Sequence record: MZ726794.1
From: Escherichia phage vB_EcoA_ASO2B
Reading direction: 5' to 3' (one strand)
Length of the DNA stretch: 39,917 nt
Positions 10,810 to 37,332 of the stretch are shown here, in pieces. Every line of letters starts with the position of its first letter. Position 1 is the first letter of the stretch. The notes beneath the pieces are model-generated. The model ran no database searches. It saw only the letters and a program-made list of their open reading frames with translations, and was not told the origin of the DNA. The translations under genes were made by a program, and so were the position numbers.

Positions 10810-11257
10810 GGTACAGTTCAACCCACGGTCCCGGACTGACGCTATCTTCGTGCACTGTTCGGCTACCAAGCCAGAGATGGACATCGGGGTAGAGACCATC
10901 CGTATGTGGCACAAGCAGCAAGGCTGGCTGGATGTAGGCTACCACTTTATCATCAAGCGTGATGGTACTGTGGAAGAGGGTCGCCCGGTAAATGTCGTAG
11001 GGTCACACGTTAAGGATTGGAACTCCCGGTCAGTAGGCGTCTGCCTTGTAGGTGGAATTGACGCTAAGGGTCAGTTTGAAGCTAACTTCACTCCAGCCCA
11101 GATGAACTCCCTGCGCAACAAGCTGGCTGACCTGAAGGTCCTGTATCCTCAGGCAGAAATCAAAGCACACCATGACGTAGCACCTAAGGCGTGTCCAAGT
11201 TTTGACTTGCAACGCTGGCTGTCTACCAATGAACTGGTCACTTCCGACCGTGGTTAA
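10799..11257 (+). CDS. Lysozyme / N-acetylmuramoyl-L-alanine amidase (T7 gene 3.5 homolog)
   Basis: TDAIFVHCSATKP...WLDVGYHFIIKRDGTVEEGR...HHDVAPKACPSFDL...NELVTSDRG matches T7 lysozyme almost throughout. Confidence 0.93.
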   Translation: MVSKVQFNPRSRTDAIFVHCSATKPEMDIGVETIRMWHKQQGWLDVGYHFIIKRDGTVEEGRPVNVVGSHVKDWNSRSVGVCLVGGIDAKGQFEANFTPAQMNSLRNKLADLKVLYPQAEIKAHHDVAPKACPSFDLQRWLSTNELVTSDRG

Positions 11258-13527: not shown

Positions 13528-15699
13528 ATGTTTGACCTTAAGAGTATCTGGGGTTCTGACATCGAGACCAACGGTCTCCTTGATACAGTCTCCCAGTTTC
13601 ACTGTGGGGTCCTGATTAACGCCGAGTCGAATGAGACCCTTAAGTATGGGGTAGCTCCGATGGTCGGTATCGTCGGTGGCTTCAAAGAGTATGTTCATAA
13701 AGTGGAAGAGATTGCCGCATCACCTGATGGTATGCTGGTATTCCATAACGGTATCAACTATGACGTCCCTGCTATAGACAAGCTGAAACGTCTGTACTTT
13801 GGGAAACGCTTTAACTTCCCGAAACACAAGATGATTGATACCTTGGTGCTGGGGCGCTTGATGTATCCAAACATTAAGTTCTCAGACATGGGCGCAGTGA
13901 AATCTGGTCGTCTGCCACCTAGTATGATGGGACGTCAGTCTCTTGAGGCTTGGGGCTATCGTCTCGGTGAGATGAAGGGTGAGTACAAACACGATTACGT
14001 TGCCAAATGCAAGGCTGAAGGTATCGAATATAAGGCTGGTGACGAATGGTTGTTCCCGTCTCAGGAGATGCTGGACTATAACGTTCAAGACGTTGTGGTC
14101 ACACTGGCGTTGTTCAAGAAGTTCCTGACTGACAAGTATTACTTCCAGTCTGAACAGTTCGCTTTCGACCAGATTTATGCGTTGCGTCTGGAACACGATG
14201 CTGCGTGGACCTGTGCGAAGATGGAGCGTAACGGCTATCCGATGAACACCGAGATGGTCGAAGGCTTATATCGTGAACTCACCGTCAAACGTGCAGAGTT
14301 GCTGGACAAGCTGCGTTCGACTTTCGGTAGCTGGTACGCACCAAAGGGCGGAAAGGAGTTCTTCAAGCACCCACGTACAGGCAAGGACCTTCCGAAGTAT
14401 CCGAGAGTCGTGTATCCTAAGGTCGGGTCAGTATTCAAGAAGCCGAAGAACAAAGCTCAACGCTTAGGTCTGGAGCCTTGCGAGTTCGACTCACGAGACA
14501 CGATGGAGGGAGCACCGTTCACACCTATCACTTACGTTGAGTTCAATCCGGGAAGCGGGGACCACTTAGCGAAAGTTCTGATGGAGCGTGGCTGGGAGCC
14601 TGTGGACTTCACTGACACCGGGAAACCTGTAGTCGATGACGAGACGTTAGAACACGTTAAGTTGCCAGACGAAGAGGCTCAGGCTTGCGTAGAGCTGGTC
14701 CGTGAGTATCTGGTAGTCCAGAAGCGCATCGGTCAGGCTGCTGAAGGTAAGAACGCATGGTTGAAACTTGTAGGTCCAGACGGACGTATGCACGGTTCAA
14801 TAAACCCATGCGGGGCAGTAACCGGACGTGCGACTCACAGTTCACCAAACATGGCTCAAGTCCCGGCTAACGGTGCTCCATACGGTGAGACTTGCCGTGG
14901 TGCTTTCGGTGCAGCTTGGAACAAGACGGATGGTAAGCCAGACCCTTGGATTCAAGTAGGCGTGGATGCTTCAGGTCTTGAGCTTCGTTGTCTAGGGAAC
15001 CGAGCGGCTCCGTTTGATGGTGGAGACTATGCGAAGACTGTGGTCGAAGGGGACATACACTGGGCCAACGCAGTAAACGCTGGGTTAGCACCTAACGTCC
15101 CACGCGACAAGTCGAGCCACGACCATGATGCTTTCCGTAATAACGCTAAGACGTTCATCTATGCGTTCCTGTATGGTGCAGGGGCCGCGAAGATTGGACT
15201 GATAGTTGGCGGTGGTAAGAAGGAAGGTTCAGCTCTCATGAAGAAATTCATTGAGGGCACACCAGCCATCAAGGACCTCAGGGAAGCTGTGAGTGATACG
15301 TTAATCTCAGACTCTAAGTGGGTGGACGGAGAGAACATCGTCAAGTGGAAACGCCGTTGGTTGCGTGGACTTGATGGTCGGCGTATCCACATCCGGTCTC
15401 CACACTCAGCACTTAACGCCTTACTTCAAGGCGATGGTGCGGTAGTCTGTAAGCACTGGATTGTCGAGACTGAACGTATGCTCGAAGATGCCGGGTATGT
15501 TCACGGCTGGGAAGGTGACTTTGCGTACATGGCTTGGGTTCACGATGAGCTACAGATTGCGTGTCGTACTCAGGAGATTGCCGAAGAAGTCGTCAAGATT
15601 GCTCAACTTGCTATGCGTAAGGTGGGTGAGTTCTATAACTTTAAATGTGTCCTTGATACCGAAGGTAAGATTGGACCAACGTGGAAGGAGTGTCACTAA
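13528..15699 (+). CDS. DNA polymerase (T7 gene 5 homolog)
   Basis: Start at 13528 (SD ggagg); the track start 13492 lies inside the R-site motif. Motifs DIETNGL (exo I), VFHNGINYDVPA, NAKTFIYAFLYGAG, YMAWVHDELQ; the thioredoxin-binding region is present. Confidence 0.96.
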   Translation: MFDLKSIWGSDIETNGLLDTVSQFHCGVLINAESNETLKYGVAPMVGIVGGFKEYVHKVEEIAASPDGMLVFHNGINYDVPAIDKLKRLYFGKRFNFPKHKMIDTLVLGRLMYPNIKFSDMGAVKSGRLPPSMMGRQSLEAWGYRLGEMKGEYKHDYVAKCKAEGIEYKAGDEWLFPSQEMLDYNVQDVVVTLALFKKFLTDKYYFQSEQFAFDQIYALRLEHDAAWTCAKMERNGYPMNTEMVEGLYRELTVKRAELLDKLRSTFGSWYAPKGGKEFFKHPRTGKDLPKYPRVVYPKVGSVFKKPKNKAQRLGLEPCEFDSRDTMEGAPFTPITYVEFNPGSGDHLAKVLMERGWEPVDFTDTGKPVVDDETLEHVKLPDEEAQACVELVREYLVVQKRIGQAAEGKNAWLKLVGPDGRMHGSINPCGAVTGRATHSSPNMAQVPANGAPYGETCRGAFGAAWNKTDGKPDPWIQVGVDASGLELRCLGNRAAPFDGGDYAKTVVEGDIHWANAVNAGLAPNVPRDKSSHDHDAFRNNAKTFIYAFLYGAGAAKIGLIVGGGKKEGSALMKKFIEGTPAIKDLREAVSDTLISDSKWVDGENIVKWKRRWLRGLDGRRIHIRSPHSALNALLQGDGAVVCKHWIVETERMLEDAGYVHGWEGDFAYMAWVHDELQIACRTQEIAEEVVKIAQLAMRKVGEFYNFKCVLDTEGKIGPTWKECH

Positions 15700-15971
15700 T
15701 GGCTATGACCAAACGCCTGACCTGTAAGTTTGACATGAAGATTGTCTTTACACCTGAGGACGTGGAGTCATACGTTCTTGAGCTGGTGAAGATTACCAAG
15801 GCTTATGTCTCCGGTGAGAAACTGGATGGCATGGCACGGAAGCTGGTAGAGACTGCTGTAGAGCATGGGGTCGAAGCTGCTATTGAGCTGCACCTGAAGT
15901 CTATTCTGGCGTCACAACTGAAAGACAAGTTGCAAGAGGTCTACAATATCAGCACGAGGTTCAAGCAATGA
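15699..15971 (+). CDS. gp5.5-like protein
   Basis: Starts MAMTKRL at ATG 15699 overlapping gene 5 stop (TAATG), SD aaggag; synteny with T7 5.5. Confidence 0.65.
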   Translation: MAMTKRLTCKFDMKIVFTPEDVESYVLELVKITKAYVSGEKLDGMARKLVETAVEHGVEAAIELHLKSILASQLKDKLQEVYNISTRFKQ

Positions 15972-16177
15972 GTGAATACTTACGGGTCCTAGCGGCCCTT
16001 AAGTCCTGCCCGAAGACCTTCCAGTCCAACTATGTGCGCAACAACGCTGCACTAGTGGCTGAGGCTGCGAGTCGTGGACATCTAAGCTGCCTGTCTATGG
16101 ATGGGCGTAACAACGGTGCGTGGGAGATTACTGCTGAAGGCACCAAGTTCCTGAACCAATACGGAGGCTGTCTATGA
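15968..16177 (+). CDS. gp5.7-like protein (69 aa)
   Basis: KSCPKTFQSNYVRNNAALVAEAASRGH...GAWEITAEGTKFL matches T7 gp5.7. Confidence 0.75.
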   Translation: MSEYLRVLAALKSCPKTFQSNYVRNNAALVAEAASRGHLSCLSMDGRNNGAWEITAEGTKFLNQYGGCL

Positions 16178-17040
16178 GTGAAAAGAAAATAGCTCTGGTG
16201 CTGGACGGTGACTACTTGGTGTTCTCTTCTATGGCTGCTGCCGAGGACGAGACAGACTGGGGCGATGACATCTGGACCCTTATCTGCGACCACGCCAAGG
16301 CCCATCGTATCCTTGAGAACACCATCGCTGAAATCGTTAAGAAGCGCAAGGCGTGGAAAGACGCTAAGATTGTGATGTGCTTTACTGACGATAATAACTG
16401 GCGTAAGGATGTTCTTCCTACCTATAAGGCCAACCGTAAGGGTTCACGTAAGCCTGTAGGTTACAAGAAGTTCGTAGCCGAAGTGATGGCTGACCCACGG
16501 TTCAACAGCTTCCTGCGTCCTACGCTTGAGGGTGATGACTGTATGGGCATCATCGGGACCAGACCTCAGATTGTCGGATGTGACCATGCGGTTCTGGTGT
16601 CCTGTGACAAGGACTTCAAGACCATCCCAAACTGTGAGTTCTTCTGGTTAACCACTGGTGAAATACTGAGTCATACGACTGCCGAAGCAGACTACTGGCA
16701 CATGGAGCAGACCATCAAGGGTGACACTACAGATGGCTATGGCGGGATTCCGGGGATGGGTGAGGACACCACTCGTGTGTTCCTTGACGAGCCGTACTAC
16801 TTCGTGCAGGAGAGCCGTGAGCTTAAGACTGGCAAGAACAAAGGCCAGATTAAGACTGAGTGGAAGAAGTATCCAAAGCGTGAAGACATGACGCTGTGGG
16901 ACTGCATGGTTACTCTGGCTGCTAAAGCTGGGATGACCGAGGAGGAACTTCTGGTCCAAGCTCAGGTCGCTCGTATTTGTCGAGCCTCCGACTATGACCC
17001 TAAGTCCAAGGAGGTCATCCTGTGGACACCACCCATGTAA
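16174..17040 (+). CDS. 5'-3' exonuclease (T7 gene 6 homolog)
   Basis: LDGDYLVF, CDHAKA, FTDDNNWRK, YKANRK, LEGDDCMG, SCDKDFKTIPNCEF, TIKGDTTDGY, TLWDC...AKAGMTEEE match T7 gp6. Confidence 0.92.
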   Translation: MSEKKIALVLDGDYLVFSSMAAAEDETDWGDDIWTLICDHAKAHRILENTIAEIVKKRKAWKDAKIVMCFTDDNNWRKDVLPTYKANRKGSRKPVGYKKFVAEVMADPRFNSFLRPTLEGDDCMGIIGTRPQIVGCDHAVLVSCDKDFKTIPNCEFFWLTTGEILSHTTAEADYWHMEQTIKGDTTDGYGGIPGMGEDTTRVFLDEPYYFVQESRELKTGKNKGQIKTEWKKYPKREDMTLWDCMVTLAAKAGMTEEELLVQAQVARICRASDYDPKSKEVILWTPPM

Positions 17041-17166
17041 TCTACTGGGCAGGACTTCTGGCCCTTTACTGCATGTACAAGTGGTTCGGGTCGAACAACC
17101 GTCCTAAACACTGAGTCTAACCGATAGTCATATCCTATTAATCCCACAGTCATCCATAGGTGAAAC

Positions 17167-17189
17167 ACTAAACTATCACTATAGGGACT
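17167..17189 (+). promoter_or_regulatory. Phage RNAP promoter (ctaaactatcactatagggac), phi6.5-like
   Basis: Perfect consensus; begins the late (class III-like) region. Confidence 0.8.
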
Positions 17190-17250
17190 TTAGGACCTAA
17201 GATATGACTATAAGATAGACTTTAGTCTTAACTTAAAGAGGAGATTCAAG

Positions 17251-17523
17251 ATGGCGATTAATGCTATTGAAAACGTTGTTAAGCAGTTACAGGAAGAAAG
17301 ACTTGATGTCCCGAACATCTCCCAGTCTGCCATCCAGTTTCTGCACGTATTGTTCAACGCAAGCTACGCTGAGAAGATGGGAGCTATCAGTCTCCTCAAG
17401 CAGCAGGGCTACAGCGATGCGTTCATTGCCGGGTTCATCAAGGGTCTCCAGTATTGTTCTGACACTCTCGACTCTGCGATTGCTATGCGTCGTGAGCTGA
17501 AAGATACCGTTCAGTTTGATTAA
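17251..17523 (+). CDS. gp6.5-like protein (90 aa)
   Basis: SD agaggag; synteny with T7 gene 6.5. Confidence 0.55.
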   Translation: MAINAIENVVKQLQEERLDVPNISQSAIQFLHVLFNASYAEKMGAISLLKQQGYSDAFIAGFIKGLQYCSDTLDSAIAMRRELKDTVQFD

Positions 17524-17537
17524 CTGTAGGAGGGACT

Positions 17538-17762
17538 ATGTGTTTCAGTCCAAAGATTAGCACTCCGAAGCCTTCGGTCCAAGCACCTGAACCAGCACCT
17601 CTGAGTGAGGAAGTTGCGTCAGTTGACATCGGGGCTGAATCGGACGTGGGCACCAACGAGACCAAAGGTATCAAAGACCTGAAGGTCAAGAAGGAGTCTG
17701 CACCTAAAGATAAATCGTCAGTAAGTCGCGCTATGCGTAACTCTGGCGTCAACATGGGGTAA
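17538..17762 (+). CDS. gp6.7-like virion protein
   Basis: Starts MCFSPKI as T7 gp6.7; SD ggaggga. Confidence 0.7.
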   Translation: MCFSPKISTPKPSVQAPEPAPLSEEVASVDIGAESDVGTNETKGIKDLKVKKESAPKDKSSVSRAMRNSGVNMG

Positions 17763-17766
17763 GACA

Positions 17767-18189
17767 ATGCTACCATATCTCAACTCACGCGAAGGCCGCC
17801 ACATGTGCGCTTGTCGCCTCTGGGAAGACGGGCAGTCTAACTTCAAGTCATTCGAGGACTTCAAGGCTCATACTTACCGTATGGCTGACGAGTTCGACGG
17901 TGAAGAGTACACAATCTACGATGTCTCAGGTCAACCAGTAGCGTATCTCTACATGCTGGCTACCGCATCTTGGCACCGACCGACTCCCGGTCTTGACCTT
18001 TCAATCGTCGCTATTCGTCGTGACTCGCAGTCCTCCCGCAAGGTTCTTGAGACTGTCAGGCACATCATAGACGAAGAGTGCAAGCAGTGGGGTCTTGGCT
18101 GGTATTCTCGTGTCAAGCATGTTTCTGGGTCGGTAGACATCGTAACAACCAAGTGCGTTAGCACGAACAAGGAGATTAACCGTGGGTAA
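17767..18189 (+). CDS. gp7-like protein (T7 gene 7 position)
   Basis: Synteny and size (140 aa vs T7 133 aa). Confidence 0.5.
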   Translation: MLPYLNSREGRHMCACRLWEDGQSNFKSFEDFKAHTYRMADEFDGEEYTIYDVSGQPVAYLYMLATASWHRPTPGLDLSIVAIRRDSQSSRKVLETVRHIIDEECKQWGLGWYSRVKHVSGSVDIVTTKCVSTNKEINRG

Positions 18190-18433
18190 ATCAATCAGTA
18201 AGGCTTTCAAGAAAGTGGTGAAAAGTACGTTAGGGACAGTGGGTCTTGGCTCTGACGATGCACCTAAGGTTGTTGAGGCTCCGACCCCAGCAGCAGCAGC
18301 AGTGGAAGTGCCGAACGATAAAGTGGAAGATGTGGATACCGAAGCAACCGCATCTGATGAGAAGAAAGTGAAGCGTTCAGGTAAGCGGAGCCTTCAGGTC
18401 TCTCGCACCTCTGGTGGTGGTATTTCTATTTAA
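18182..18433 (+). CDS. gp7.3-like tail/adsorption protein
   Basis: GTG start with SD aaggag; Lys-rich N-terminus and C-terminus SGKRSLQVSRTSGGGISI matching T7 gp7.3 (...KKSLSVARSSGGGINI). Confidence 0.7.
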   Translation: MGKSISKAFKKVVKSTLGTVGLGSDDAPKVVEAPTPAAAAVEVPNDKVEDVDTEATASDEKKVKRSGKRSLQVSRTSGGGISI

Positions 18434-18444
18434 GGAGGTGACGA

Positions 18445-20013
18445 ATGGCTGAACGTGAAGGGTTCGCTGCTGAAGGAGCCAAAGCGGTCTATGACCGACT
18501 GAAGAACGGTAGACAGCCATATGAGACACGCGCTCAGAATTGTGCTGCTGTCACTATCCCGTCACTGTTTCCTAAGGAGTCCGACAACTCGTCTACTGAG
18601 TACACCACTCCGTGGCAAGCTGTAGGTGCTCGATGTTTGAACAACTTGGCTGCAAAGCTGATGTTGGCATTATTCCCCCAGTCACCGTGGATGCGACTTA
18701 CAGTCTCCGAATATGAGGCTAAGACCTTGAGTCAGGACTCAGAGGCTGCTGCTCGTGTTGACGAGGGGCTTGCTATGGTCGAGCGTGTGTTGATGGCCTA
18801 CATGGAGACAAACAGTTTCCGTGTGCCATTGTTCGAAGCTCTGAAGCAGCTTATAGTCTCCGGTAACTGTCTGCTCTACATTCCAGAGCCTGAACAGGGA
18901 ACCTACAGTCCCATGCGAATGTACCGCTTAGTGTCTTACGTTGTTCAACGTGATGCGTTCGGTAACATCTTGCAGATTGTGACTCTCGACAAGGTAGCGT
19001 TTAGTGCTCTACCGGAAGACGTGAAGTCTCAACTCAACGCAGACGACTATGAGCCTGACACCGAGCTGGAAGTGTATACGCACATTTACCGTCAGGACGA
19101 CGAGTATCTACGCTACGAGGAAGTGGAAGGCATTGAGGTAGCAGGGACCGATGGTTCTTACCCACTGACTGCCTGTCCATACATCCCGGTACGAATGGTT
19201 CGACTGGACGGTGAAGACTATGGGCGCTCTTATTGCGAGGAGTATCTGGGAGACCTGAACTCGCTGGAGACGATTACAGAAGCTATCACCAAAATGGCTA
19301 AGGTAGCCTCCAAAGTGGTGGGCCTCGTTAACCCGAACGGTATCACGCAACCTCGTCGTCTGAATAAGGCGGCTACAGGTGAGTTCGTGGCTGGTCGCGT
19401 TGAGGACATCAACTTTCTGCAACTGACGAAAGGTCAGGACTTTACGATTGCTAAATCGGTGGCTGACGCTATCGAGCAACGTCTAGGCTGGGCCTTCCTT
19501 CTCAATAGTGCTGTTCAGCGTAATGCCGAGCGAGTCACTGCCGAAGAGATTCGTTATGTTGCTGGCGAACTGGAGGCGACCTTAGGTGGCGTGTATTCAG
19601 TACAGTCACAAGAGCTTCAGTTACCTATCGTCCGTGTGCTGATGAACCAACTTCAGTCTGCTGGCATGATTCCTGACCTTCCGAAAGAAGCGGTAGAGCC
19701 TACTGTCTCAACTGGTCTGGAAGCTCTGGGCCGTGGTCAGGACTTGGAGAAGCTGACTCAGGCGGTTAACATGATGACTGGTCTTCAGCCGCTATCTCAG
19801 GACCCGGACATCAATTTGCCGACCCTTAAGCTGCGACTCCTGAACGCTCTGGGCATCGACACCGCTGGCCTACTCCTGACGCAAGACGAGAAGATTCAGC
19901 GCATGGCAGAGCAGTCGTCTCAACAGGCAGTTGTCCAAGGTGCTAGTGCTGCTGGTGCTAACATGGGTGCTGCTGTAGGTCAGGGAGCTGGTGAGGACAT
20001 GGCTCAAGCCTAA
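18445..20013 (+). CDS. Portal (head-tail connector) protein, T7 gene 8 homolog
   Basis: PYETRAQNCA, TPWQAVGAR, YRLVSYVVQRDAFGN, LRYEEVEG, RLDGEDYGRSY, ITQPRRL, ERVTAEEIRYVA match T7 gp8. Confidence 0.96.
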   Translation: MAEREGFAAEGAKAVYDRLKNGRQPYETRAQNCAAVTIPSLFPKESDNSSTEYTTPWQAVGARCLNNLAAKLMLALFPQSPWMRLTVSEYEAKTLSQDSEAAARVDEGLAMVERVLMAYMETNSFRVPLFEALKQLIVSGNCLLYIPEPEQGTYSPMRMYRLVSYVVQRDAFGNILQIVTLDKVAFSALPEDVKSQLNADDYEPDTELEVYTHIYRQDDEYLRYEEVEGIEVAGTDGSYPLTACPYIPVRMVRLDGEDYGRSYCEEYLGDLNSLETITEAITKMAKVASKVVGLVNPNGITQPRRLNKAATGEFVAGRVEDINFLQLTKGQDFTIAKSVADAIEQRLGWAFLLNSAVQRNAERVTAEEIRYVAGELEATLGGVYSVQSQELQLPIVRVLMNQLQSAGMIPDLPKEAVEPTVSTGLEALGRGQDLEKLTQAVNMMTGLQPLSQDPDINLPTLKLRLLNALGIDTAGLLLTQDEKIQRMAEQSSQQAVVQGASAAGANMGAAVGQGAGEDMAQA

Positions 20014-26756: not shown

Positions 26757-29039
26757 ATGGCTAGTAATATTGAATCAGCTCTGGCTAATCGGACTATGGG
26801 TCGCGGCAGAGCGCCGGGTAAAACTATCGCCGTCAACTATCAAGCAGCCAACGTTCAGGCTCCGACTGGGGACTCCGGTCTGGCTCGTGCGTTAACCAAC
26901 TTCGTTGAGTCTGGGACTGGATTGTACAAGCAGTTCAAGGACGAGGAGAAGACCAGAGCTGACGAGCGGTCTAACGAGATTATCCGTAAACTGACACCTC
27001 AGCAAAGACGTGAGGCTATCCAGAACGGCACATTGCTGTATCAGGATGACCCTTACGCTATGGAAGCACTTCGAGTCAAGACTGGTCGTAATGCTGCCTT
27101 TGCTGTAGACGACGAGATTAACGTTAAGATTCAGAACGGTGAGTTCCGTACACGTCAGGACATGGAAGAGTATCGCCACCAGCGACTTCAGGACGCCGCT
27201 AAGTCCTATGCTGAAGAGGCGGGTATTAACCCTACAGACGAGTTCTTCCAGCGTGGGTTCAACGATAACATCACAGACCGCAACATAGCTATCTATGGGT
27301 CTTTCAATAAGTATTTCAGCAAGCAGTCTGAAGAGACAGCAATGTTGAACACCCGTATTGAGATGAACTCATTCCTGAACGATGGCGACCTGATGCGTTC
27401 ACCTGAGTCTGGCAAGACATTCATGACCTACCTTCGTGACGGACTGACTACTGCTGCTATCCCCTCGGACCAGCGAGCGCGTGAGGTCATTACCCAGACT
27501 GTACGTGACGCAATCCAGAAGTCAGGCGGCTCAAACTTCCTACAGCAAGTACGAGGCGAGCGAATCACACTTAACGGTGTGGATGCTACAGTCGAAGAGA
27601 TTGTAGGACCTGATGTCTTCAACGCTGCTATTGTTGAGGCACAAGGTACTGAGTATAAACTGGTGGCTAAGTATCAGGAAGACTTAGCGTTAGGCGTTCA
27701 GTCTGCGATTCTTCAGGACGACCCAACCATCGGTCTTGCCCAGATTCAGAAACTCAAGGAGCAGAACAACCTGCTTCAACCGGGTGAAGAACTCACACCT
27801 CAGCGTCAGATGCTTATTAATGCCGAAGCCAGCTTACTGGAAGCGGTAAAGCGTAAGTCTGCTGAACAGGCGAAGGAGAACACGAAGTTAATCCAGACCC
27901 AGAACAAGCAACTGGTCATTGACCAAGTTTATCAGCGACGTCTGGCTGGAGACAACGTGTCCACCAACTATGAGGACCTTCCGGTCTCTGAAGCCACAGG
28001 AGAGTTCAAGCGTTCAGACATGAACAACTATGCGTCTTCTAAGCTACAGCAGATTGACCAGATGGACATCCCTGAGGCTGCTAAGGACGCCCAGAAGGTG
28101 GCATTGTTAAGAGCTGACACTAACAACGGTCCGTTCCGTAATGCCTTCCAGACGCTTACTCAGGACGCTGCGGGTGAGTGGCAAGCTGCTGTCATCCGTG
28201 GACAGTACGACCAAGACAAGATGAAACGCTTCGAGTCTCTTCGTCGTGCCTACACTCAGGACCCTTCAAGTTTCGCTGCTCTGTATCCTGACCAAGCTCA
28301 GTTGTTCTCTACGTTCGACCAGATGGACAAGATGGGTCTGGACCCTCAGACGATGATTGAAGCTGATAAGCAAGCTGCAAGTCAAAGCCGCGAGATGCGC
28401 ATGGAGTCAGACAAGGCGTGGCAGGAGTTGAAGAACGACTCCAAGAACACCCAGTTGTCTCGCCTCCCAACGTCTCTGGACTCAAGTGCTCGTAAGGTCT
28501 GGGACTCATGGTACTATCGTACAGGTAACGCTGACGCTGCAACGCAGCAGACTCAACGCTGGCTGAATGAGAACACCGTAACGTTCCAGTCTGAAGGTTC
28601 TGACGGTAAGTCCATCGGCATGGTGTCCAAGCACCAGCTTATGGTCGGGGATAACCCAGAGTCGTGGCAGGTGGGTCGAGACATTATCGATACAGCTCGT
28701 AAGCAGCTCATTAAGGCCAACCCTTGGGTAGTGAACTCTCAGTTGTCCGTTGTTGAACAGAACGGCTCTATCTTCCTCCAAGACGCTACAGGGACTATTC
28801 GTATTCGCTACGATAAAGAACTTGTAGGTAAACTCTACCGCGAACAACAGCAGAAGGCACAAGATGCCGCATACGCTCAGGCAGAACGTGACGCTAACAA
28901 GCGAGCGCGTATCGTCGGGACTAAAGCTGCCGGTGACAAACGTCGAGCTGACCGAGAGGCCAACATCGAGAAGCGCGGAGGGATGTACAATGACGTCTCA
29001 TTGGAGGGTATCGCAAACGTACTAATCGGTAAGGAGTAA
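26757..29039 (+). CDS. Internal virion protein C (T7 gene 15 homolog)
   Basis: ADERSNEIIRKLTPQQRREAIQNGTLLYQDDPYAMEALRVKTGRNAA is near-identical to T7 gp15; size 760 vs 747 aa. Confidence 0.93.
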   Translation: MASNIESALANRTMGRGRAPGKTIAVNYQAANVQAPTGDSGLARALTNFVESGTGLYKQFKDEEKTRADERSNEIIRKLTPQQRREAIQNGTLLYQDDPYAMEALRVKTGRNAAFAVDDEINVKIQNGEFRTRQDMEEYRHQRLQDAAKSYAEEAGINPTDEFFQRGFNDNITDRNIAIYGSFNKYFSKQSEETAMLNTRIEMNSFLNDGDLMRSPESGKTFMTYLRDGLTTAAIPSDQRAREVITQTVRDAIQKSGGSNFLQQVRGERITLNGVDATVEEIVGPDVFNAAIVEAQGTEYKLVAKYQEDLALGVQSAILQDDPTIGLAQIQKLKEQNNLLQPGEELTPQRQMLINAEASLLEAVKRKSAEQAKENTKLIQTQNKQLVIDQVYQRRLAGDNVSTNYEDLPVSEATGEFKRSDMNNYASSKLQQIDQMDIPEAAKDAQKVALLRADTNNGPFRNAFQTLTQDAAGEWQAAVIRGQYDQDKMKRFESLRRAYTQDPSSFAALYPDQAQLFSTFDQMDKMGLDPQTMIEADKQAASQSREMRMESDKAWQELKNDSKNTQLSRLPTSLDSSARKVWDSWYYRTGNADAATQQTQRWLNENTVTFQSEGSDGKSIGMVSKHQLMVGDNPESWQVGRDIIDTARKQLIKANPWVVNSQLSVVEQNGSIFLQDATGTIRIRYDKELVGKLYREQQQKAQDAAYAQAERDANKRARIVGTKAAGDKRRADREANIEKRGGMYNDVSLEGIANVLIGKE

Positions 29040-29043: not shown

Positions 29044-32000
29044 ATGGCGACTCGTGGTATTCGCAATAACAATCCGGGTAACATCCGGGTAAGTAAGGAC
29101 CAATGGGAAGGAATGACTGGAGATGATGGCTCATTCGTCACCTTCGATAGTCCAGAGTCTGGCGTCCGAGCTTTAGGTAAAAACCTGCTGTCCTACGGTC
29201 GCCAAGGTTATGACTCCATCGAGAAGATTATCAACCGATGGGCGCCTCCTAACGAGAACGACACTAAGGCTTATATTGACTCAGTGGTGGCTGCAACTGG
29301 TATTCCAGCTACCCAGAGTCTCGACCTATCGAACCCTGACACCCTGTCTGCTCTGGCGCAAGCTATTAGCTTCCATGAGACAGGCTCCCGGTACAATCCT
29401 GAAGTCTATCAGAAGGGAGTCGAAAGAGCACTTAACGGCATTAGCCCAAAGACTCCACCAGTAAGCGCTAACGTATTTGACGCACTCACGGAAGGACTCA
29501 AGGCTAAACCTAAAGTAGCTCTGGGTGAGAACCTTCCGACCGCTGCTGGTCTAAACATTGAGGGTCAAGCACCTGAAGCTCCCAACGAATCGTTCGGTGA
29601 GATGTTCTATAAGTCTACTGGCGAGACCATGCAGGAACGAGAGGATCGCTCTACGTGGTTCGGTTTCGGCTCGGCTACAGAAGCTGAAGTGAAGAACTCT
29701 ATGGTCGGCGTGGCTATCCGCGCTGGTCAGACCGAGGACTCACTTGATGTCATTGGCGATGTGTTCAACCCTACCCGCTGGAACAACCATAAGTGGTCTC
29801 GTGAGGAGCTGGACCAGATTCGTAACGCTGGAGTTCTCCCTCAGTATTACGGTGTCATTACTGGTGGCTCTCCTCAGAACCTGACCGAGCTTATTAACTT
29901 GGCGCTTGAGAACCAGAAGTTGGACCAAGAGAAGGCCAAGGCTGGGACTGGTGCTCAGCTAGCAGCTGGTGTGATTGGTGCTGGTGTAGACCCGCTGACC
30001 TACGTTCCTATCGCTGGACAGGTTGGCAAAGGTGCGAAGCTAGTCAACAAGATGTTCACCGTGGCTGCTCAATCTGGAGCACTTGCTGGTGTATCAGAGA
30101 TGGCCCGTACCTCAGTGGCTGGTGGGGATGCTCATGTGGCTGAAGCTATCCTTGGTGGTGCTCTCTTTGGTGGTGGTATGACTGCCATCGCTGATGGGTT
30201 AGGCAGAGCCTTAGGTCGCAACACTAATGAGTTTGCTGGCCCAGCTACACGTCTGGAAGCTCGTGAGACCGCTCGTAACGTTGATGGTCAGGACCTGTCT
30301 CGTCTTCCTATTCAGGAAGGTGAGCAGACCTTTAGTCATCAAGGCGTTAAGTTCGCTGACGTTCCTAATGAGCCGGGAAGTGTACGATTAGAAGATGGTT
30401 CAATCCTGATTGGTGAGAACCCTCTGAACCCTAAGACACGTCAAGTCTTCGACGAAGTGATTGAGCCAGAACGTGCCGCTGCTGGTGTGAACCTTGGTGG
30501 ACTTACCGAGATTGGTCTGAAGCTGCTTCGGTCTGAGAACCCTGAGATTCGTGGAGTAGCTGCTGACTTAGTACGTTCACCGACTGGTATGCAGTCTGGG
30601 GCCTCAGGTAAAATTGGGACAACTGCGTCAGACGTGTTCGAGAGGCTTCGTGCTGTGGACCATCGGTTCTACAACGACATCGACGATGCGGTTACTGAGG
30701 CACTAAAGGACCCGTACTTCCAGACAGCATTCTGGCGAGACTCTGGAGCATTCCGTCAGGACATCTACCAGCGCGTGTCTATGGCTATCGAAGATGGCAG
30801 CGGAAACCTGAAGGCTGAACTGACTCCGGGAGAACTTAAAGTCTATGACCTACTGAAGAACCAGTTTGACGCCAAGCGTGAGATGATGGAGAACCCAGCT
30901 ATGTTTGGTCGGTCAGATGCTCAGTCTATCTTTCCGGGCAGCCGCTTCAAGGGAACCTACGTCCCTCATGTGTATAGCAAACAGATGAAGGAGCTGTACA
31001 CCAAGGAGCTTGGGAGTCCAGAGGCGTTGCAGGAGGCCATCAAGAAGGCATGGTTGACCAGCTATGCGTCTCGACCTGAAGTCAAGAAACGCGTGGACGA
31101 GGCACTCTTAGAGTCTGACCCTACGTTGACTCCAGAAGGGCTTGCGGCTGCGGTCGATAAGTACGCCAACGATAAGGCTTACGGTATCTCCCACACCGAG
31201 CAGTTCGAACGTTCATCCGTAATGGAAGAGAACATCAACGGTCTGGTTGGTCTGGAGAACAACAGCTTCCTTGAGGCTCGTAACCTGTTCGATAGCGATA
31301 TGTCAATCGTCCTACCTAACGGTCAGACCTTCAGTGTCAACAACCTGCGTGAGTGGGACATGGACAAGATTGTCCCGGCATACAACCGTCGAGTTAATGG
31401 TGACATTGCTATTATGGCTGGTACAGGCAAGACAACGAAAGAAATGAAGGACTTGGTTGAGACCATGATGAACAAGGCTGGGGATGACGGTAAGTTGAAA
31501 GGTGAAGTATCTACCTTACGTGACACCTTGAAGATTCTAACTGGTCGTGCTCGACGTGATGGTGCTGACGATGCAGCCTTCGCTGCCGTGATGCGCACAA
31601 TGACAGACCTATCGTTCTTCGCTAAGAATGCCTATATGGGTGTTCAGAACTTAACGGAGATTGGTGGTATGCTGGCCCGTGGTAACGTTCGCGCAATGCT
31701 GCATGGAGTCCCAATTTTCCGTGACCTAGCCTTCCGTAACAAGAAAGTTGGGGCCTCAGAGATTAAGGACCTGCACAATGTTATCTTTGGTAAGGAGCTG
31801 GATGACTCAATCCGTCCGTCTAAACAGGATGTCATTGACCGTCTGCGATCTTACAGTGACCTCGGTCGTGGTACAGCTACAGCTCTGGGGACTGCCAAGT
31901 ATTACACTGGCGAACTTGCAGTACGCTCTCCGTTCACTAAAGCCCTCAACGGTACGACCAACTACCTGTTAGATGCTGGACGTCAAGGCTTCCTGTCTGA

Positions 32001-32931
32001 CATCGTGGAGCATAGCCTGACTGGTAGTAAGCGTAAATTCGATGACCGCTGGCTGAAGACAGCTGGTATCTCTGACGAGCAGTGGAAGGGCATTAAGTCC
32101 CTAATCCGTGAGTCAGTGACTCGTGGTCCAGACGGGAAGTATATCATCAAGGATAAGAAGGCGTTCAGTCAGGACCCAAGGGCTATGGACCTGTGGCGTA
32201 TGGGTGATACCATCGCTGACGAAACGTTACTCCGGCCACACAAGCTGTCCAACATGGACGCCAAGGCTTATGGTCCTCTCGCTAAGACTGTCCTTCAGTT
32301 TAAGAACTTCGTCATCAAGTCCATCAATGGACGTACCATGCGAACCTTCTATAACGCCACGAAGAACAACCGAGCGATGGACGCTGCCTTGTCCACTGTG
32401 ATGTCTATGGGTCTGGCTGGTATCTACTACATGGCTCAGGCGCACGTCAAGGCCTACGCTATGCAGGATGGTCGAGACCGTGACTACCTCAAGCAAGCTC
32501 TAGACCCGACGATGATTGGATATGCAGCTCTATCACGTAGTTCACATCTTGGTGGACCACTTGGGGTAGCTAACATTCTGGGTGGCATCGCTGGGTATGA
32601 GGACACTAAGATGCTCCGTTCGTCTATCCTACCTCGTTCGCCTACAGAGAAGCCTGAACGTGCCATCGCGTATGGTGCAGCTACAAGCGGCCCTGTGATG
32701 AATGTTGTTGGTAACTTCTTGGAGCAGGTTCCAGCTTTCGGATATGCTGCTAACGTTGGCGCTTCGGCTTACAACTTGGCTGGCTACCTCAAGGCTGATA
32801 CTCGTGTCAACGAGCGTGACTACATGACCGGGATGTATAATACGTTCCGTGAACTGGTTCCGAACGACCCAATTACCCAGAAGCTGTTGCTTGGAACGTT
32901 TGAGGAGCAAGGTATCCACATCAAGGACTAA
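29044..32931 (+). CDS. Internal virion protein D (T7 gene 16 homolog), 1295 aa, with divergent N-terminal domain
   Basis: From about residue 200 onward matches T7 gp16 (RLEARETARN, DLVRSPTGMQSGASGK, PHVYS, EENIxGLVGxENNSFLEARNLFDSD, RPHK, LSRSS); N-terminal ~150 aa lack the T7 transglycosylase motif I recall. Confidence 0.92.
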   Translation: MATRGIRNNNPGNIRVSKDQWEGMTGDDGSFVTFDSPESGVRALGKNLLSYGRQGYDSIEKIINRWAPPNENDTKAYIDSVVAATGIPATQSLDLSNPDTLSALAQAISFHETGSRYNPEVYQKGVERALNGISPKTPPVSANVFDALTEGLKAKPKVALGENLPTAAGLNIEGQAPEAPNESFGEMFYKSTGETMQEREDRSTWFGFGSATEAEVKNSMVGVAIRAGQTEDSLDVIGDVFNPTRWNNHKWSREELDQIRNAGVLPQYYGVITGGSPQNLTELINLALENQKLDQEKAKAGTGAQLAAGVIGAGVDPLTYVPIAGQVGKGAKLVNKMFTVAAQSGALAGVSEMARTSVAGGDAHVAEAILGGALFGGGMTAIADGLGRALGRNTNEFAGPATRLEARETARNVDGQDLSRLPIQEGEQTFSHQGVKFADVPNEPGSVRLEDGSILIGENPLNPKTRQVFDEVIEPERAAAGVNLGGLTEIGLKLLRSENPEIRGVAADLVRSPTGMQSGASGKIGTTASDVFERLRAVDHRFYNDIDDAVTEALKDPYFQTAFWRDSGAFRQDIYQRVSMAIEDGSGNLKAELTPGELKVYDLLKNQFDAKREMMENPAMFGRSDAQSIFPGSRFKGTYVPHVYSKQMKELYTKELGSPEALQEAIKKAWLTSYASRPEVKKRVDEALLESDPTLTPEGLAAAVDKYANDKAYGISHTEQFERSSVMEENINGLVGLENNSFLEARNLFDSDMSIVLPNGQTFSVNNLREWDMDKIVPAYNRRVNGDIAIMAGTGKTTKEMKDLVETMMNKAGDDGKLKGEVSTLRDTLKILTGRARRDGADDAAFAAVMRTMTDLSFFAKNAYMGVQNLTEIGGMLARGNVRAMLHGVPIFRDLAFRNKKVGASEIKDLHNVIFGKELDDSIRPSKQDVIDRLRSYSDLGRGTATALGTAKYYTGELAVRSPFTKALNGTTNYLLDAGRQGFLSDIVEHSLTGSKRKFDDRWLKTAGISDEQWKGIKSLIRESVTRGPDGKYIIKDKKAFSQDPRAMDLWRMGDTIADETLLRPHKLSNMDAKAYGPLAKTVLQFKNFVIKSINGRTMRTFYNATKNNRAMDAALSTVMSMGLAGIYYMAQAHVKAYAMQDGRDRDYLKQALDPTMIGYAALSRSSHLGGPLGVANILGGIAGYEDTKMLRSSILPRSPTEKPERAIAYGAATSGPVMNVVGNFLEQVPAFGYAANVGASAYNLAGYLKADTRVNERDYMTGMYNTFRELVPNDPITQKLLLGTFEEQGIHIKD

Positions 32932-32995: not shown

Positions 32996-35900
32996 ATGTC
33001 CACGATTACACAATTCCCTTCAGGAAACACTCAGTACAGGATTGAGTTCGACTACCTCGCCAGAACGTTTATTGTTGTTACGCTGGTGAATAGCTCTAAC
33101 CCTACCCTGAACCGTGTACTGGAAGTTGGTCGAGATTACCGATTCCTTAATCCAACGATGATTGAGATGTTGGTTGACCAATCAGGTTTCGACATCGTTC
33201 GTATTCACCGTCAGACTGGAACTGACTTAGTGGTAGACTTCAGGAATGGCTCAGTGTTGACAGCTAGTGACCTGACCAATTCAGAGCTTCAGGCTATCCA
33301 TATTGCAGAAGAAGGTAGAGACCAAACGGTTGACTTAGCGAAGGAATATGCCGATGCTGCTAGTAGCTCTGCTGGCAACGCTAAGGATAGCGAGGACGAA
33401 GCACGACGAATCGCTGAGAGTATCAGGGAAGCTGGTCTAATTGGCTATATTACCCGTCGCTCCTTCGAGAAAGGCTACAACGTTACAACATGGAGCGAGG
33501 TCCTGCTATGGGAAGAGGATGGTGATTATTACCGCTGGGATGGTACGCTTCCAAAGAACGTTCCTGCTGGTTCAACTCCTGAAACTTCCGGTGGGATTGG
33601 ATTAGGTGCGTGGGTTAGTGTTGGTGATGCTGCTTTAAGAAGTCAGATTTCAAATCCTGAGGGGGCAATACTCTACCCTGAATTACATAGAGCACGCTGG
33701 CTTGATGAAAAAGATGTTCGTGGTTGGGGTGCTAAAGGTGATGGTGTCACTGATGATACAGCAGCGTTAACGAGCGCATTAAACGACATACCGGTTGGAC
33801 AAAAGATTAATGGCAATGGGAAGACATATAAGGTCACGTCCCTGCCTGACATTAGTCGCTTCATCAACACTCGTTTCGTTTATGAGCGCATTCCCGGACA
33901 ACCTCTTTATTATGCCTCTGAGGAATTTGTTCAGGGTGAGTTGTTCAAAATAACTGACACCCCTTATTACAATGCGTGGCCTCAGGATAAAGCGTTCGTA
34001 TATGATAATGTGATATATGCACCTTACATGGGCAGCGATCGTCATGGTGTCAGTCGTCTGCATGTATCATGGGTTAAGTCTGGTGATGATGGTCAAACAT
34101 GGTCTACTCCAGAGTGGTTAACTGATCTGCATCCAGATTACCCTACAGTGAACTATCACTGTATGAGTATGGGTGTATGTCGCAACCGTCTGTTTGCCAT
34201 GATTGAAACACGTACTTTAGCCAAGAACGCATTAACCAATTGTGCATTGTGGGATCGCCCCATGTCTCGTAGCCTGCATCTTACTGGTGGTATCACTAAA
34301 GCTGCAAATCAGCAATATGCAACAATACATGTACCAGACCACGGACTATTCGTGGGTGATTTTGTTAACTTCTCTAATTCTGCGGTAACAGGTGTATCCG
34401 GTGATATGACTGTTGCAACCGTAATAGATAAGGACAACTTCACGGTTCTTACACCCAACCAGCAGACTTCAGATTTGAATAACGCTGGAAAGAATTGGCA
34501 CATGGGTACGTCTTTCCATAAGTCTCCATGGCGTAAGACAGACCTTGGTCTAATCCCTCGTGTCACAGAGGTGCATAGCTTTGCTACTATTGATAACAAT
34601 GGCTTTGTTATGGGTTATCATCAAGGCGATGTAGCCCCACGCGAAGTTGGGCTTTTCTACTTCCCTGATGCTTTCAATAGCCCATCTAGTTATGTTCGTC
34701 GTCAGATACCATCTGAGTATGAACCAGATGCGTCAGAGCCGTGCATCAAGTACTATGACGGTGTATTATACCTTATCACTCGTGGCACTCGTGGGGATAG
34801 ACTAGGTAGCTCTTTGCATCGTAGTAGAGACATAGGTCAGACTTGGGAGTCACTGAGATTTCCACATAATGTTCATCATACTACATTACCTTTTGCTAAA
34901 GTAGGGGATGACCTTATTATGTTTGGTTCAGAACGTGCAGAAAATGAATGGGAAGCAGGTGCACCAGATGATCGTTACAAGGCATCTTATCCTCGCACCT
35001 TCTATGCACGCTTGAATGTAAACAATTGGAATGCAGATGATATTGAATGGGTTAACATCACTGACCAGATTTATCAGGGCGGAATAGTTAACTCAGGTGT
35101 AGGTGTTGGTTCGGTAGTTGTGAAGGATAATTACATCTACTACATGTTTGGTGGAGAGGACCATTTTAACCCATGGGCATATGGAGATAACTCAGCGAAG
35201 GACCCATTCAAATCAGATGGTCATCCCTCAGATTTGTATTGCTACAAAATGAAGATTGGCCCAAGCAATCATGTTTCCCGTGATTTCAGGTATGGTGCTG
35301 TACCTAACAGAGCTGTTCCCGTGTTTTTTGATACGAATGGGATTCGCACTGTTCCTGCGCCAATGGAATTTACAGGGGATTTGGGTTTAGGTCATGTGAC
35401 CCTTAGAGCCAGCACCAGTAGTAACATTCGCTCTGAAGTTTTAATGGAAGGTGAATATGGGTTTATCGGGAAGTCTATACCGACTGATAATCCAGCAGGG
35501 CAGCGCACCATATTTTGCGGAGGTGAAGGCACCAGTTCAACGACTGGCGCACAGATTACGCTTTATGGTGCAAATAACACCGACTCAAGGCGAATAGTTT
35601 ACAATGGTGATGAGCATCTGTTCCAGACTGCTGACGTTAAGCCTTATAACGATAACGCCATTGCGCTTGGTGGGCCAAGTAACCGTTTCACAACTGCATA
35701 TCTCGGAAGCAACCCTATTGTTACTTCTAATGGGGAGAAGAAAACAGAGCCGGTAGTTTTTGATGATGCTTTCCTAGATGCCTGGGGTGACGTTCACTAC
35801 ATCATGTATCAATGGTTAGATGCTGTTCAACTGAAAGGCAATGATGCTCGTATTCACTTCGGGGTTATTGCTCAGCAAATTCGTGATGTATTCATTGCAC

Positions 35901-36190
35901 ACGGTCTGATGGATGAAAACAGTACGAATTGTCGTTATGCCGTTCTGTGTTATGACAAGTATCCACGGATGACCGATACGGTATTTTCGCACAATGAAAT
36001 CATTGAACACACTGACGAGGAGGGTAATGTCACTACTACGGAAGAGCCTGTATTCACTGAGGTGGTTATCCATGAAGAGGGTGAAGAGTGGGGTGTCCGG
36101 CCTGACGGAATTTTCTTTGCTGAAGCCGCTTATCAGAGAAGAAAACTGGAAAGAATCGAAGCCAGACTTTCTGCTCTTGAACAGAAGTAA
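32996..36190 (+). CDS. Tail fibre / tailspike (gene 17), 1064 aa: T7-type N-terminal adaptor fused to sialidase-type (endosialidase-like) depolymerase with C-terminal intramolecular chaperone
   Basis: N-terminus RIEFDYLARTFIVVTL matches the T7 gp17 adaptor (NIPFEYLARKFVVVTL); two perfect Asp-boxes SGDDGQTW (34079-34102) and SRDIGQTW (34823-34846); C-terminal HFGVIAQQ chaperone motif with Ser911-x3-Lys-Lys at 35726. Confidence 0.9.
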   Translation: MSTITQFPSGNTQYRIEFDYLARTFIVVTLVNSSNPTLNRVLEVGRDYRFLNPTMIEMLVDQSGFDIVRIHRQTGTDLVVDFRNGSVLTASDLTNSELQAIHIAEEGRDQTVDLAKEYADAASSSAGNAKDSEDEARRIAESIREAGLIGYITRRSFEKGYNVTTWSEVLLWEEDGDYYRWDGTLPKNVPAGSTPETSGGIGLGAWVSVGDAALRSQISNPEGAILYPELHRARWLDEKDVRGWGAKGDGVTDDTAALTSALNDIPVGQKINGNGKTYKVTSLPDISRFINTRFVYERIPGQPLYYASEEFVQGELFKITDTPYYNAWPQDKAFVYDNVIYAPYMGSDRHGVSRLHVSWVKSGDDGQTWSTPEWLTDLHPDYPTVNYHCMSMGVCRNRLFAMIETRTLAKNALTNCALWDRPMSRSLHLTGGITKAANQQYATIHVPDHGLFVGDFVNFSNSAVTGVSGDMTVATVIDKDNFTVLTPNQQTSDLNNAGKNWHMGTSFHKSPWRKTDLGLIPRVTEVHSFATIDNNGFVMGYHQGDVAPREVGLFYFPDAFNSPSSYVRRQIPSEYEPDASEPCIKYYDGVLYLITRGTRGDRLGSSLHRSRDIGQTWESLRFPHNVHHTTLPFAKVGDDLIMFGSERAENEWEAGAPDDRYKASYPRTFYARLNVNNWNADDIEWVNITDQIYQGGIVNSGVGVGSVVVKDNYIYYMFGGEDHFNPWAYGDNSAKDPFKSDGHPSDLYCYKMKIGPSNHVSRDFRYGAVPNRAVPVFFDTNGIRTVPAPMEFTGDLGLGHVTLRASTSSNIRSEVLMEGEYGFIGKSIPTDNPAGQRTIFCGGEGTSSTTGAQITLYGANNTDSRRIVYNGDEHLFQTADVKPYNDNAIALGGPSNRFTTAYLGSNPIVTSNGEKKTEPVVFDDAFLDAWGDVHYIMYQWLDAVQLKGNDARIHFGVIAQQIRDVFIAHGLMDENSTNCRYAVLCYDKYPRMTDTVFSHNEIIEHTDEEGNVTTTEEPVFTEVVIHEEGEEWGVRPDGIFFAEAAYQRRKLERIEARLSALEQK

Positions 36191-36882: not shown

Positions 36883-37332
36883 ATGCTCGAATTTTTAAAG
36901 AGAGCGGCTCCGTGGTTACTTGCAGCAGTGATGTTTGCGGGTGGCTACCACACCGCTAATAATAAGTGGGAGGCTAAGGTCAATGAAGAATACACCTCGA
37001 ATCTTAAGGCATCGGAAGATACAAGGCTTGCTGTCCAAGCTGAAGTCAACAAAGTGTCCAAACGGTTTCAGGACGAAATGTCCTCGCTGGAAGGCAGCAC
37101 TGATAGGATTATTGCTGACCTTCAGTCTGACAATAAGCGGCTGCGCATCCGAGTCAAGCCAACGAGTGGAACCACGCAAAGTGACGGTCGATGCGTCATT
37201 GATGGTTACGCCGAACTTGACGAACGAGATGCTAAACGTCTTATCGCCATCGGAGTGAAAGGAGACAAGTGGATTAAGGCCCTTCAGGACACTGTGAGAG
37301 CCTTGCAGCAAGATAAGGAGGTGACGCATTGA
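36883..37332 (+). CDS. i-spanin (Rz-like, T7 gene 18.5 homolog)
   Basis: N-terminal membrane anchor [15 protein letters not shown], then a charged, probably coiled-coil periplasmic domain; SD gggaggg. Confidence 0.8.
36983..37258 (+). CDS. o-spanin (Rz1-like, gene 18.7), embedded in +1 frame of the i-spanin gene; start uncertain
   Basis: Lipoprotein signal with lipobox [13 protein letters not shown] and Pro-rich mature part; chosen ATG 36983 gives 91 aa; track ORF begins at 36935. Confidence 0.5.
   Translation: MKNTPRILRHRKIQGLLSKLKSTKCPNGFRTKCPRWKAALIGLLLTFSLTISGCASESSQRVEPRKVTVDASLMVTPNLTNEMLNVLSPSE

Follow-up and report, generated by a model that had tools for sequence, protein, structure and literature searches.

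Gp16 of a K1F-like Escherichia phage carries a predicted Enc34/PM2-P5-type muralytic domain in place of the T7 transglycosylase domain

The DNA analyzed here, referred to as the window, is the whole 39,917-nucleotide sequence of Escherichia phage vB_EcoA_ASO2B (MZ726794.1), a T7-like phage genome of 39.9 kb that is complete, or nearly so, and has the gene order of T7. The genome is of the Kayfunavirus (K1F-like) type, and the 5-kb region around the gp16 gene is 99.0% identical to Escherichia phage Mt1B1_P3 and 95–98% identical to many other Kayfunavirus phages. Gene 16 is flanked by the genes for gp15 and the gp17 tailspike in the order 14-15-16-17, and the gp14 of this genome matches Pfam T7_gp14. 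The tailspike encoded 3′ of gp16 combines a T7 tail-fibre N-terminus with endosialidase catalytic domains and a Peptidase_S74 chaperone; this architecture is the hallmark of K1F. The genes and signals that bear on gp16 are located as follows:

26757..29039 (stop codon 29037..29039), + strand: gene 15, encoding gp15, the periplasmic tunnel protein and ejectosome partner of gp16 (ORF; gp15 annotation in the 99%-identical Mt1B1_P3 record)
29030..29036, + strand: Shine-Dalgarno sequence TAAGGAG for gene 16, within the end of gene 15, with a 7-nt spacing to the ATG (read from the sequence)
29044..32931 (stop codon included), + strand: gene 16, encoding the internal virion (ejection) protein gp16 of 1295 aa (ORF; T7 gp16 homology; phrog_342; 9VVP)
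10799..11257: gp3.5-like Amidase_2 lysis enzyme
36883..37332: Rz-like (spanin-like) gene

The gp16 translation starts with MATRGIRNNNPGNIRVSKDQWEG, as an earlier note on this DNA had quoted it, and the same methionine begins chain L of PDB entry 9VVP. The protein matches phrog_342, "internal virion protein with endolysin domain", with an E value of 0. An 84-aa ORF in the +2 frame (29210..29464) and the ORFs on the minus strand were also considered, and were rejected as chance ORFs surrounded by a strongly conserved coding region.

BLASTP alignment with the T7 protein (NC_001604) showed that gp16 residues 130–1295 align with T7 gp16 residues 157–1315 at 53% identity over 1177 residues, while residues 1–129 gave no significant alignment with T7 gp16 (best stray HSP, E 0.45). 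A phmmer search of the PDB agreed on this boundary, pairing gp16 residues 128–1294 with T7 residues 155–1314 (7EYB_I, E = 0), and the alignment begins at a G-I-(S/T)-P-K motif that is common to both proteins. In T7 gp16, residues 1–156 are the transglycosylase domain, with the catalytic residue Glu37, and residues 157–228 form the gp15-binding "molecular tape" (PMC8954989). Since the homology begins at T7 residue 157 and the T7 transglycosylase domain ends at residue 156, the break coincides with a structural domain boundary. By its alignment, the body of gp16 falls within the T7 gp16 family as a regular member. The features on either side of the boundary are listed below:

29044..29430, + strand: predicted Enc34/PM2-P5-type (PHA02564) lysozyme-like muralytic domain, gp16 residues 1–129, in place of the T7 SLT domain (sequence and predicted fold)
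29053..29088, + strand: N-terminal loop motif RGIRNNNPGNIR, residues 4–15, a family signature that aligns with PRGIRNNNPGNIE of 7Q47
29239..29241, + strand: Trp66 codon TGG (RWAPP), equivalent to Enc34 Trp79 (7Q47 alignment; conserved in at least 90% of 47 aligned homologues; role from PMC8943055)
29272..29274, + strand: Tyr77 codon TAT (KAYID), equivalent to Enc34 Tyr95 (7Q47 alignment; invariant; PMC8943055)
29377..29379, + strand: Glu112 codon GAG (H-E-T-G-S; FHETGS), equivalent to the proposed catalytic Enc34 Glu131 (invariant; HETGS aligns with HENGS of 7Q47)
29431..29661, + strand: linker equivalent to the T7 "molecular tape" and start of the T7-homologous body (BLASTP start at gp16 130/T7 157; boundaries from PMC8954989)

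The earlier note had described an N-terminus that lacks the T7 transglycosylase motif in an otherwise conserved gp16, and the description agrees with our data on both counts. No Pfam match, to SLT or to any other model, was obtained at E ≤ 1 when residues 1–160 and the full-length protein were scanned, and the NCBIfam scan of gp16 gave zero matches; in the positive control, T7 gp16 residues 15–127 matched Pfam SLT (PF01464) with E 5e-31. Comparison by hhalign of a 47-sequence profile of the gp16 N-domain with T7 gp16 residues 1–156 gave a probability of 0.12% (E 0.46), and the single short segment that was aligned placed gp16 residues 35–54 on T7 residues 77–96. The SLT-type E-S motif, which in T7 holds Glu37 on the first helix, is not found in the first 35 residues of gp16, which consist of a loop and a hairpin. 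Because two defining SLT features were looked for and neither was found, the N-domain is placed outside the SLT family. The non-T7 stretch is real, as the note had it, but its length is ~129–130 residues (29044..29430) and not ~150–160; residues 130–160, which the note had counted in, are already part of the T7-homologous linker.

When gp16 residues 1–160 were searched with phmmer against all PDB sequences, residues 3–124 matched the Hafnia phage Enc34 endolysin in its catalytic domain (7Q47) with E 3.5e-14, and a 47-homologue profile of the N-domain matched 7Q47 with E 8.6e-43. The AlphaFold2 model of the N-domain, made with the alignment of 47 N-domain homologues as input, had a mean pLDDT of 87 and a pTM of 0.82, and the predicted fold is all-alpha, in which five helices come after an N-terminal loop and hairpin. 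A Foldseek search of the PDB with this model returned 7Q47 at E 2.7e-9 with a TM score of 0.80; besides 7Q47 and 9VVP, the latter a partial match of 100 columns with a TM score of 0.50, no match below E 0.1 was obtained. The modeled fold resembles the lysozyme alpha-lobe and superposes on 7Q47. In both sequence and predicted structure, the gp16 N-domain is a clear member of the Enc34-endolysin/PM2-P5 (PHA02564) family. Pfam and NCBIfam have no model for a domain of this type, and the assignment came from PHROGs and the PDB.

Residues were mapped from the HMMER alignment, in which the chain numbering of 7Q47 equals the numbering of the Enc34 paper plus 1. The residues that are invariant in the alignment of 47 N-domain homologues are N8, N9, N10, N13, I14, and R15, all in the N-terminal loop motif, and W21, G23, F31, G40, Y51, A67, P68, N72, Y77, and E112. 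According to the Enc34 study (PMC8943055), Glu131 is the counterpart of the catalytic Glu in TM0633, phiKZ gp144, and MltC, Trp79 and Tyr95 are conserved residues that position the substrate, and the Glu-bearing helix has a permuted position when compared with GH73 and GH23 enzymes. Structural superposition is the basis on which the Trp, Tyr, and Glu were given a catalytic role, and the text consulted reports no mutagenesis. In gp16, Glu112 lies on a predicted helix that spans residues 98–113. This residue is kept in all six of the Kayfunavirus gp16 sequences compared and also in Solymavirus, and Trp66, Tyr77, and Glu112 are all kept in K1F gp16 and in four Kayfunavirus gp16 sequences that are 78–85% identical in the N-domain. 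The suggestion of the earlier note that this may be an alternative muralytic or penetration domain is thus supported by the family membership, in sequence and predicted fold, and by the presence of the three proposed catalytic residues. The note had also named a match to SLT with its catalytic Glu as the result that would speak against it; none was detected, and Glu112 lies on the last core helix of a permuted, lysozyme-like alpha-lobe, outside an SLT-type N-terminal E-S motif.

Some variation was observed within the RNNNPGN loop, where certain Kayfunavirus gp16 sequences carry substitutions at family-invariant positions (N9H, N9A, and P11I). Together with the replacement of Trp by Leu in Solymavirus, these substitutions suggest that some relaxation of constraint is possible. 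Pairwise Nei-Gojobori comparison of gene 16 of this phage with five other Kayfunavirus genes gave dN/dS values of 0.06–0.13 for codons 1–129 and 0.05–0.10 for codons 130–415. Since the values are similarly low in both parts, purifying selection on the N-domain is strong and matches that on the remainder of gp16.

Cells of E. coli, P. aeruginosa, and H. alvei with a permeabilised outer membrane are lysed by the ORF39 domain of Enc34 (PMC8943055), and M4Lys of Salmonella phage BSPM4 degrades purified murein to muropeptides that, by HPLC-MS, indicate an N-acetylglucosaminidase (PMC7143992). The M4Lys study also suggested an endopeptidase activity, which was judged unlikely by the Enc34 authors. 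Peptidoglycan degradation in the family has been demonstrated for only ORF39deltaC (PMC8943055) and M4LysdeltaTMD (PMC7143992), and what is known of the family's bond specificity comes from a single HPLC-MS study. Other homologues are virion proteins, namely the structural protein P5 of corticovirus PM2 (PMC9502842) and GP11 of NO16. The names PHA02564 "V virion protein" and "structural protein P5" on stand-alone homologues trace back to PM2 P5.

In a large protein database, 857 homologues of the N-domain were found, most of them stand-alone proteins of 130–220 aa and some of them named "structural protein", and no Pfam domains were found among these 857. Stand-alone homologues that are ~50–60% identical to the N-domain occur in enterobacterial phages and prophages. 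PHROG and BFVD matches place the same domain inside proteins annotated as tape-measure, head, "tail injection transglycosylase", injection, and other large virion proteins, and tblastn detected it in 746 phage records, which include epsilon15-like phages, Mu-like Pseudomonas phages, chiviruses, Vinavirales, and others. The family is therefore a general-purpose muralytic module, which serves some phages as an endolysin and others as a lysin of the virion.

The distribution of the module among phages was assessed by three tblastn censuses of the phage collection, which give separate counts and not a record-by-record intersection. The gp16 body segment was found in 1281 phage records, with the 232 at 60% identity or above making up the Kayfunavirus cluster; the gp16 N-domain was found in 222 records at 60% identity or above, and the T7 SLT domain in 1002 records at E ≤ 1e-10. 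Such numbers fit the presence of SLT in about four fifths of the records and of the Enc34-type module throughout Kayfunavirus, K1F included. SLT is also carried by Ralstonia phage RSB2, which lies outside Studiervirinae. The gp16 of Vibrio phage ICP3 (1128 aa) is without any N-terminal enzyme domain, and the homologous part begins only at ICP3 residue 34, the equivalent of residue 180 in the gp16 described here.

A lead from BFVD identified a second genus with the Enc34-type module, Solymavirus, represented by Providencia phage PSTRCR_120. The gp16 of this phage is 44% identical to the window gp16 in the N-domain and only 29% identical in the body, and its N-domain retains the Tyr and Glu and has Leu at the Trp position. 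Since Solymavirus shares the N-domain type at 29% body identity and T7, at 53%, bears SLT, the N-domain type is incongruent with the relationships of the bodies, and from these comparisons more than one exchange event is argued for. GC content is flat across both junctions of the N-domain (0.49–0.53). A recent horizontal acquisition was considered and rejected, as GC showed no compositional trace of one; the swap is therefore old. The N-domain is an ordinary, genus-wide module swap, exchanged as a cassette at the domain/linker boundary.

Compared with the SLT domain of T7 gp16 (residues 1–156; 7EYB/7K5C), the gp16 N-domain occupies the same position in the protein, is followed by the same linker and body, is of similar size (129 residues versus 156), and presumably serves the same purpose, to open the murein so that the ejectosome can pass. 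The two families are unrelated at the sequence level, however, with the catalytic Glu on the first core helix in T7 and on the last in gp16, and the chemistry is expected to differ, the T7 enzyme being a lytic transglycosylase and the gp16 domain probably a hydrolytic N-acetylglucosaminidase. The Enc34 endolysin ORF39 (7Q47; Cernooka et al. 2022, PMC8943055) has two short insertions that are not present in the gp16 N-domain. Both ORF39 and M4Lys of BSPM4 (PMC7143992) work from the inside at lysis, whereas the gp16 N-domain is expected to work from the outside at entry. PM2 P5, its Vinavirales homologues, and NO16 GP11 (PMC9502842, PMC13552765) are members of the same family and likewise virion components, but they are small proteins that stand alone and belong to tailless phages with a membrane, whereas the gp16 N-domain is fused to a podovirus ejection protein. 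The phiKMV-like gp42/gp36 proteins follow the same principle of a muralytic module on one of the three ejection proteins, with the type and position of the module varying by lineage (bioRxiv 10.64898/2026.05.18.726046); the phiKMV-like module has a T4-lysozyme-like fold and is C-terminal on the gp15 homologue, and thus differs from the gp16 N-domain in fold, carrier, and location.

Two deposited proteins are essentially the same as the one described here. The N-domain of K1F gp16 (DQ111067) is 96.9% identical to that of the window gp16, and Gp29 of phage E1004 (chain L of the cryo-EM entry 9VVP, "Core proteins of the bacteriophage E1004") is ~98% identical over the full length. The presence of gp16 in the capsid core is supported indirectly, because this 98%-identical protein is a chain of 9VVP. 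There is no biologically meaningful difference between the window gp16 and either K1F gp16 or E1004 Gp29, and the phage is another isolate of the same genus.

In view of this evidence, gp16 residues 1–129 are very likely an Enc34/PM2-P5-type peptidoglycan glycosidase domain that replaces the T7 SLT domain and acts in DNA ejection. The likeliest function would be that of a virion-borne peptidoglycan glycosidase that opens the cell wall at DNA ejection, and the domain is probably, by analogy with its family, a hydrolytic endo-beta-N-acetylglucosaminidase. The data show what the domain is, where it ends, how it is distributed, that its proposed catalytic residues are conserved, and that it is under purifying selection. 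We infer the enzymatic activity of the window gp16, its bond specificity, and its ejection role, the last of which is transferred from the literature on T7 gp16. In the proposed mechanism, gp16 would be packaged in the capsid core stack (cf. 9VVP) and, at infection, would unfold, go through the tail, and refold in the periplasm, where the N-domain would sit outside the gp15/gp16 tunnel at the height of the murein layer. The N-domain would then cut the glycan strands of murein locally by hydrolysis, with Glu112 as the catalytic general acid and with Trp66 and Tyr77 positioning the substrate, and this local cut would let the tunnel reach the inner membrane. The glycosidic bond cut would be other than the one cut by the T7 enzyme, and no 1,6-anhydro-MurNAc ends would be produced. 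No report of a measured activity for gp16 of this type was found in the literature searched. The equivalent T7 activity is said, from work by Moak and Molineux in 2000, to be dispensable under standard laboratory conditions.

It could be argued that the N-domain is an SLT/GH23 lytic transglycosylase like that of T7 that has diverged past recognition, as the Enc34 authors (PMC8943055) argue for a distant common ancestry of the fold with GH73 and GH23, and the short hhalign segment may represent a plausible equivalent helix. We consider this highly improbable given the hhalign probability quoted above, the missing Pfam SLT match compared with the strong match of T7, and the abruptness of the break, which falls at a domain boundary; with 53% identity elsewhere in gp16, drift cannot account for a single domain that lacks all similarity. 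The location of the catalytic Glu on the C-terminal core helix also counts against such an origin, since it means that the helix order is permuted relative to GH23, as does the existence of the ~50–60% identical stand-alone homologues in enterobacterial phages and prophages.

The same fold could also be catalytically dead and retained for its structure, with the role of a "wing" or of a module that binds murein in the gp15/gp16 periplasmic tunnel. A purely structural role is conceivable because the T7 N-domain forms the wings of the tunnel (PMC8954989), and the invariant-loop substitutions in some Kayfunaviruses and the Trp-to-Leu change in Solymavirus would fit with it. This seems unlikely for the window gp16, in which all family-invariant residues are intact, including Glu112 and Tyr77, and Trp66 is present too; in addition, purifying selection on the domain equals that on the body, and inactive derivatives usually lose the catalytic acid. 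An active domain might instead be a second endolysin that works at the end of infection and not at entry, given that Enc34 ORF39 and M4Lys are endolysins and that public records name gp16 "internal virion protein with endolysin domain". There is very little chance of this, in our judgment, as the protein to which the N-domain is fused goes into the capsid core (9VVP "core proteins") and the N-domain has no Enc34-type signal sequence or TMD, and the muralytic domain of T7 gp16 acts at entry (PMC8954989). The phage encodes its own canonical T7-type lysis genes, the gp3.5-type Amidase_2 and the spanin-like Rz gene, and the gp16 domain is therefore not needed as an endolysin. Action of the proposed glycosidase at entry and not at lysis is thus supported by the capsid-internal fusion, by the lack of an Enc34-type membrane anchor, and by these lysis genes.

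The same domain is present in K1F gp16, whose sequence dates from 2005, the structure of a 98%-identical protein is deposited, and the enzymology of the family has been published; in the literature searched, whose coverage was partial, no paper explicitly assigning K1F-like gp16 to the Enc34 type was found. The RefSeq name for these proteins is "internal virion protein with endolysin domain", and many Kayfunavirus GenBank records label gp16 "peptidoglycan lytic exotransglycosylase" or "transglycosylase". The "(exo)transglycosylase" label is copied from T7, and the domain content gives no support for it. The main value of the present analysis is for annotation, where "peptidoglycan hydrolase, Enc34/PM2-P5-type" would be the accurate name, and the affected Kayfunavirus records include several therapy candidates against K1 E. 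coli. The analysis also adds one more clean case in which the muralytic module of a podovirus ejection protein was exchanged like a cassette. In a recent census, only 127 of 205 Autographivirales had a lysozyme or transglycosylase that could be recognised, and this may be an undercount because Pfam is without a model for the Enc34/PM2-P5 family.

The replacement of SLT by the Enc34-type module, which is repeated in Kayfunavirus and in the separately diverged Solymavirus of Providencia, may have been adaptive rather than neutral, although we regard this as a speculative reading with a small chance of being correct. O-acetylation of murein and the periplasmic inhibitors of lysozymes and lytic transglycosylases both block SLT-type enzymes. 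A hydrolytic N-acetylglucosaminidase needs no free C6-OH on MurNAc, and it would therefore work on O-acetylated murein or despite such inhibitors. The murein of Providencia, Proteus, and Morganella is O-acetylated. If the adaptive reading is true, host range would be determined at the cell-wall step by which type of muralytic module gp16 carries.

The relationship of the gp16 N-terminal domain to the remainder of the protein was examined in a further genus, Solymavirus, which is the second Studiervirinae genus found to carry an Enc34-type N-domain (the Enc34/PM2-P5 muralytic domain) on gp16. The locus is:

MW358928 (L010), 15309..19187, minus strand: gp16 with an Enc34-type N-domain, Providencia phage PSTRCR_120

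The PSTRCR_120 protein shares 44% identity with the window gp16 in the N-domain and only 29% in the body, while the body of the window gp16 is 53% identical to that of T7, which bears the lytic transglycosylase (SLT) domain. The type of N-terminal domain on gp16 is therefore incongruent with the phylogeny of the body. At the position of the family's conserved Trp (Trp66 in the window gp16), PSTRCR_120 has Leu (TRLSPPNEN).

Vibrio phage ICP3 represents a third arrangement, in which gp16 lacks an N-terminal muralytic domain:

ON464736 (L008), 1112..4268, plus strand: gp16 of ICP3, 1128 aa

ICP3 gp16 is homologous to the window gp16 only from its residue 34 onward, equivalent to residue 180 of the window protein, and Pfam gave no match in the first 250 aa of the ICP3 protein.

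Variation within the Enc34-type domain was observed at the groove loop, RNNNPGNIR:

Window equivalent 29065..29076: loop motif in Kayfunavirus gp16 N-termini (L002, L003, L004, L006)

Across 47 family members N9 of this motif is invariant and P11 is near-invariant, and some Kayfunavirus gp16 proteins are substituted there: IMM-002 and BHUENT8 have RNNNIGNIR, PRF-SP5 has RNHNIGNIR and T147P5 has RNANPGNIR. The canonical motif is kept in the window gp16. These substitutions may mean that the groove loop is slightly less constrained when the domain is part of gp16.

In GenBank, gp16 of many near-identical phages (window 29044..32931) goes by names such as 'peptidoglycan transglycosylase' and 'peptidoglycan lytic exotransglycosylase'. 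The transglycosylase name of Kayfunavirus gp16 is taken over from T7 and is unsupported by the domain that is actually present. In the Kayfunavirus-like Shigella phage ESh23 (ON528733, 2818..3204), the gp16 N-terminal region is labelled 'nonfunctional hypothetical protein due to mutation'; gene 16 of this phage could be frameshifted or mis-assembled.

The window phage's own lysis functions are a gp3.5-type amidase and an Rz-like spanin gene, listed here with the tailspike:

10799..11257, plus strand: gp3.5-type N-acetylmuramoyl-L-alanine amidase (Pfam Amidase_2, 2.4e-16)
32996..36190, plus strand: gp17, K1F-type endosialidase tailspike
36883..37332, plus strand: Rz-like spanin gene (Phage_lysis, 7e-5, just under the Pfam cut-off)

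gp17 combines T7 tail-fibre N-terminal and Tail_spike_N domains with the endosialidase N-terminal extension and beta-propeller, beta-barrel and stalk domains; at its C-terminus is a Peptidase_S74 intramolecular chaperone. A tailspike of this K1F type predicts that the phage is specific for K1-capsulated E. coli.
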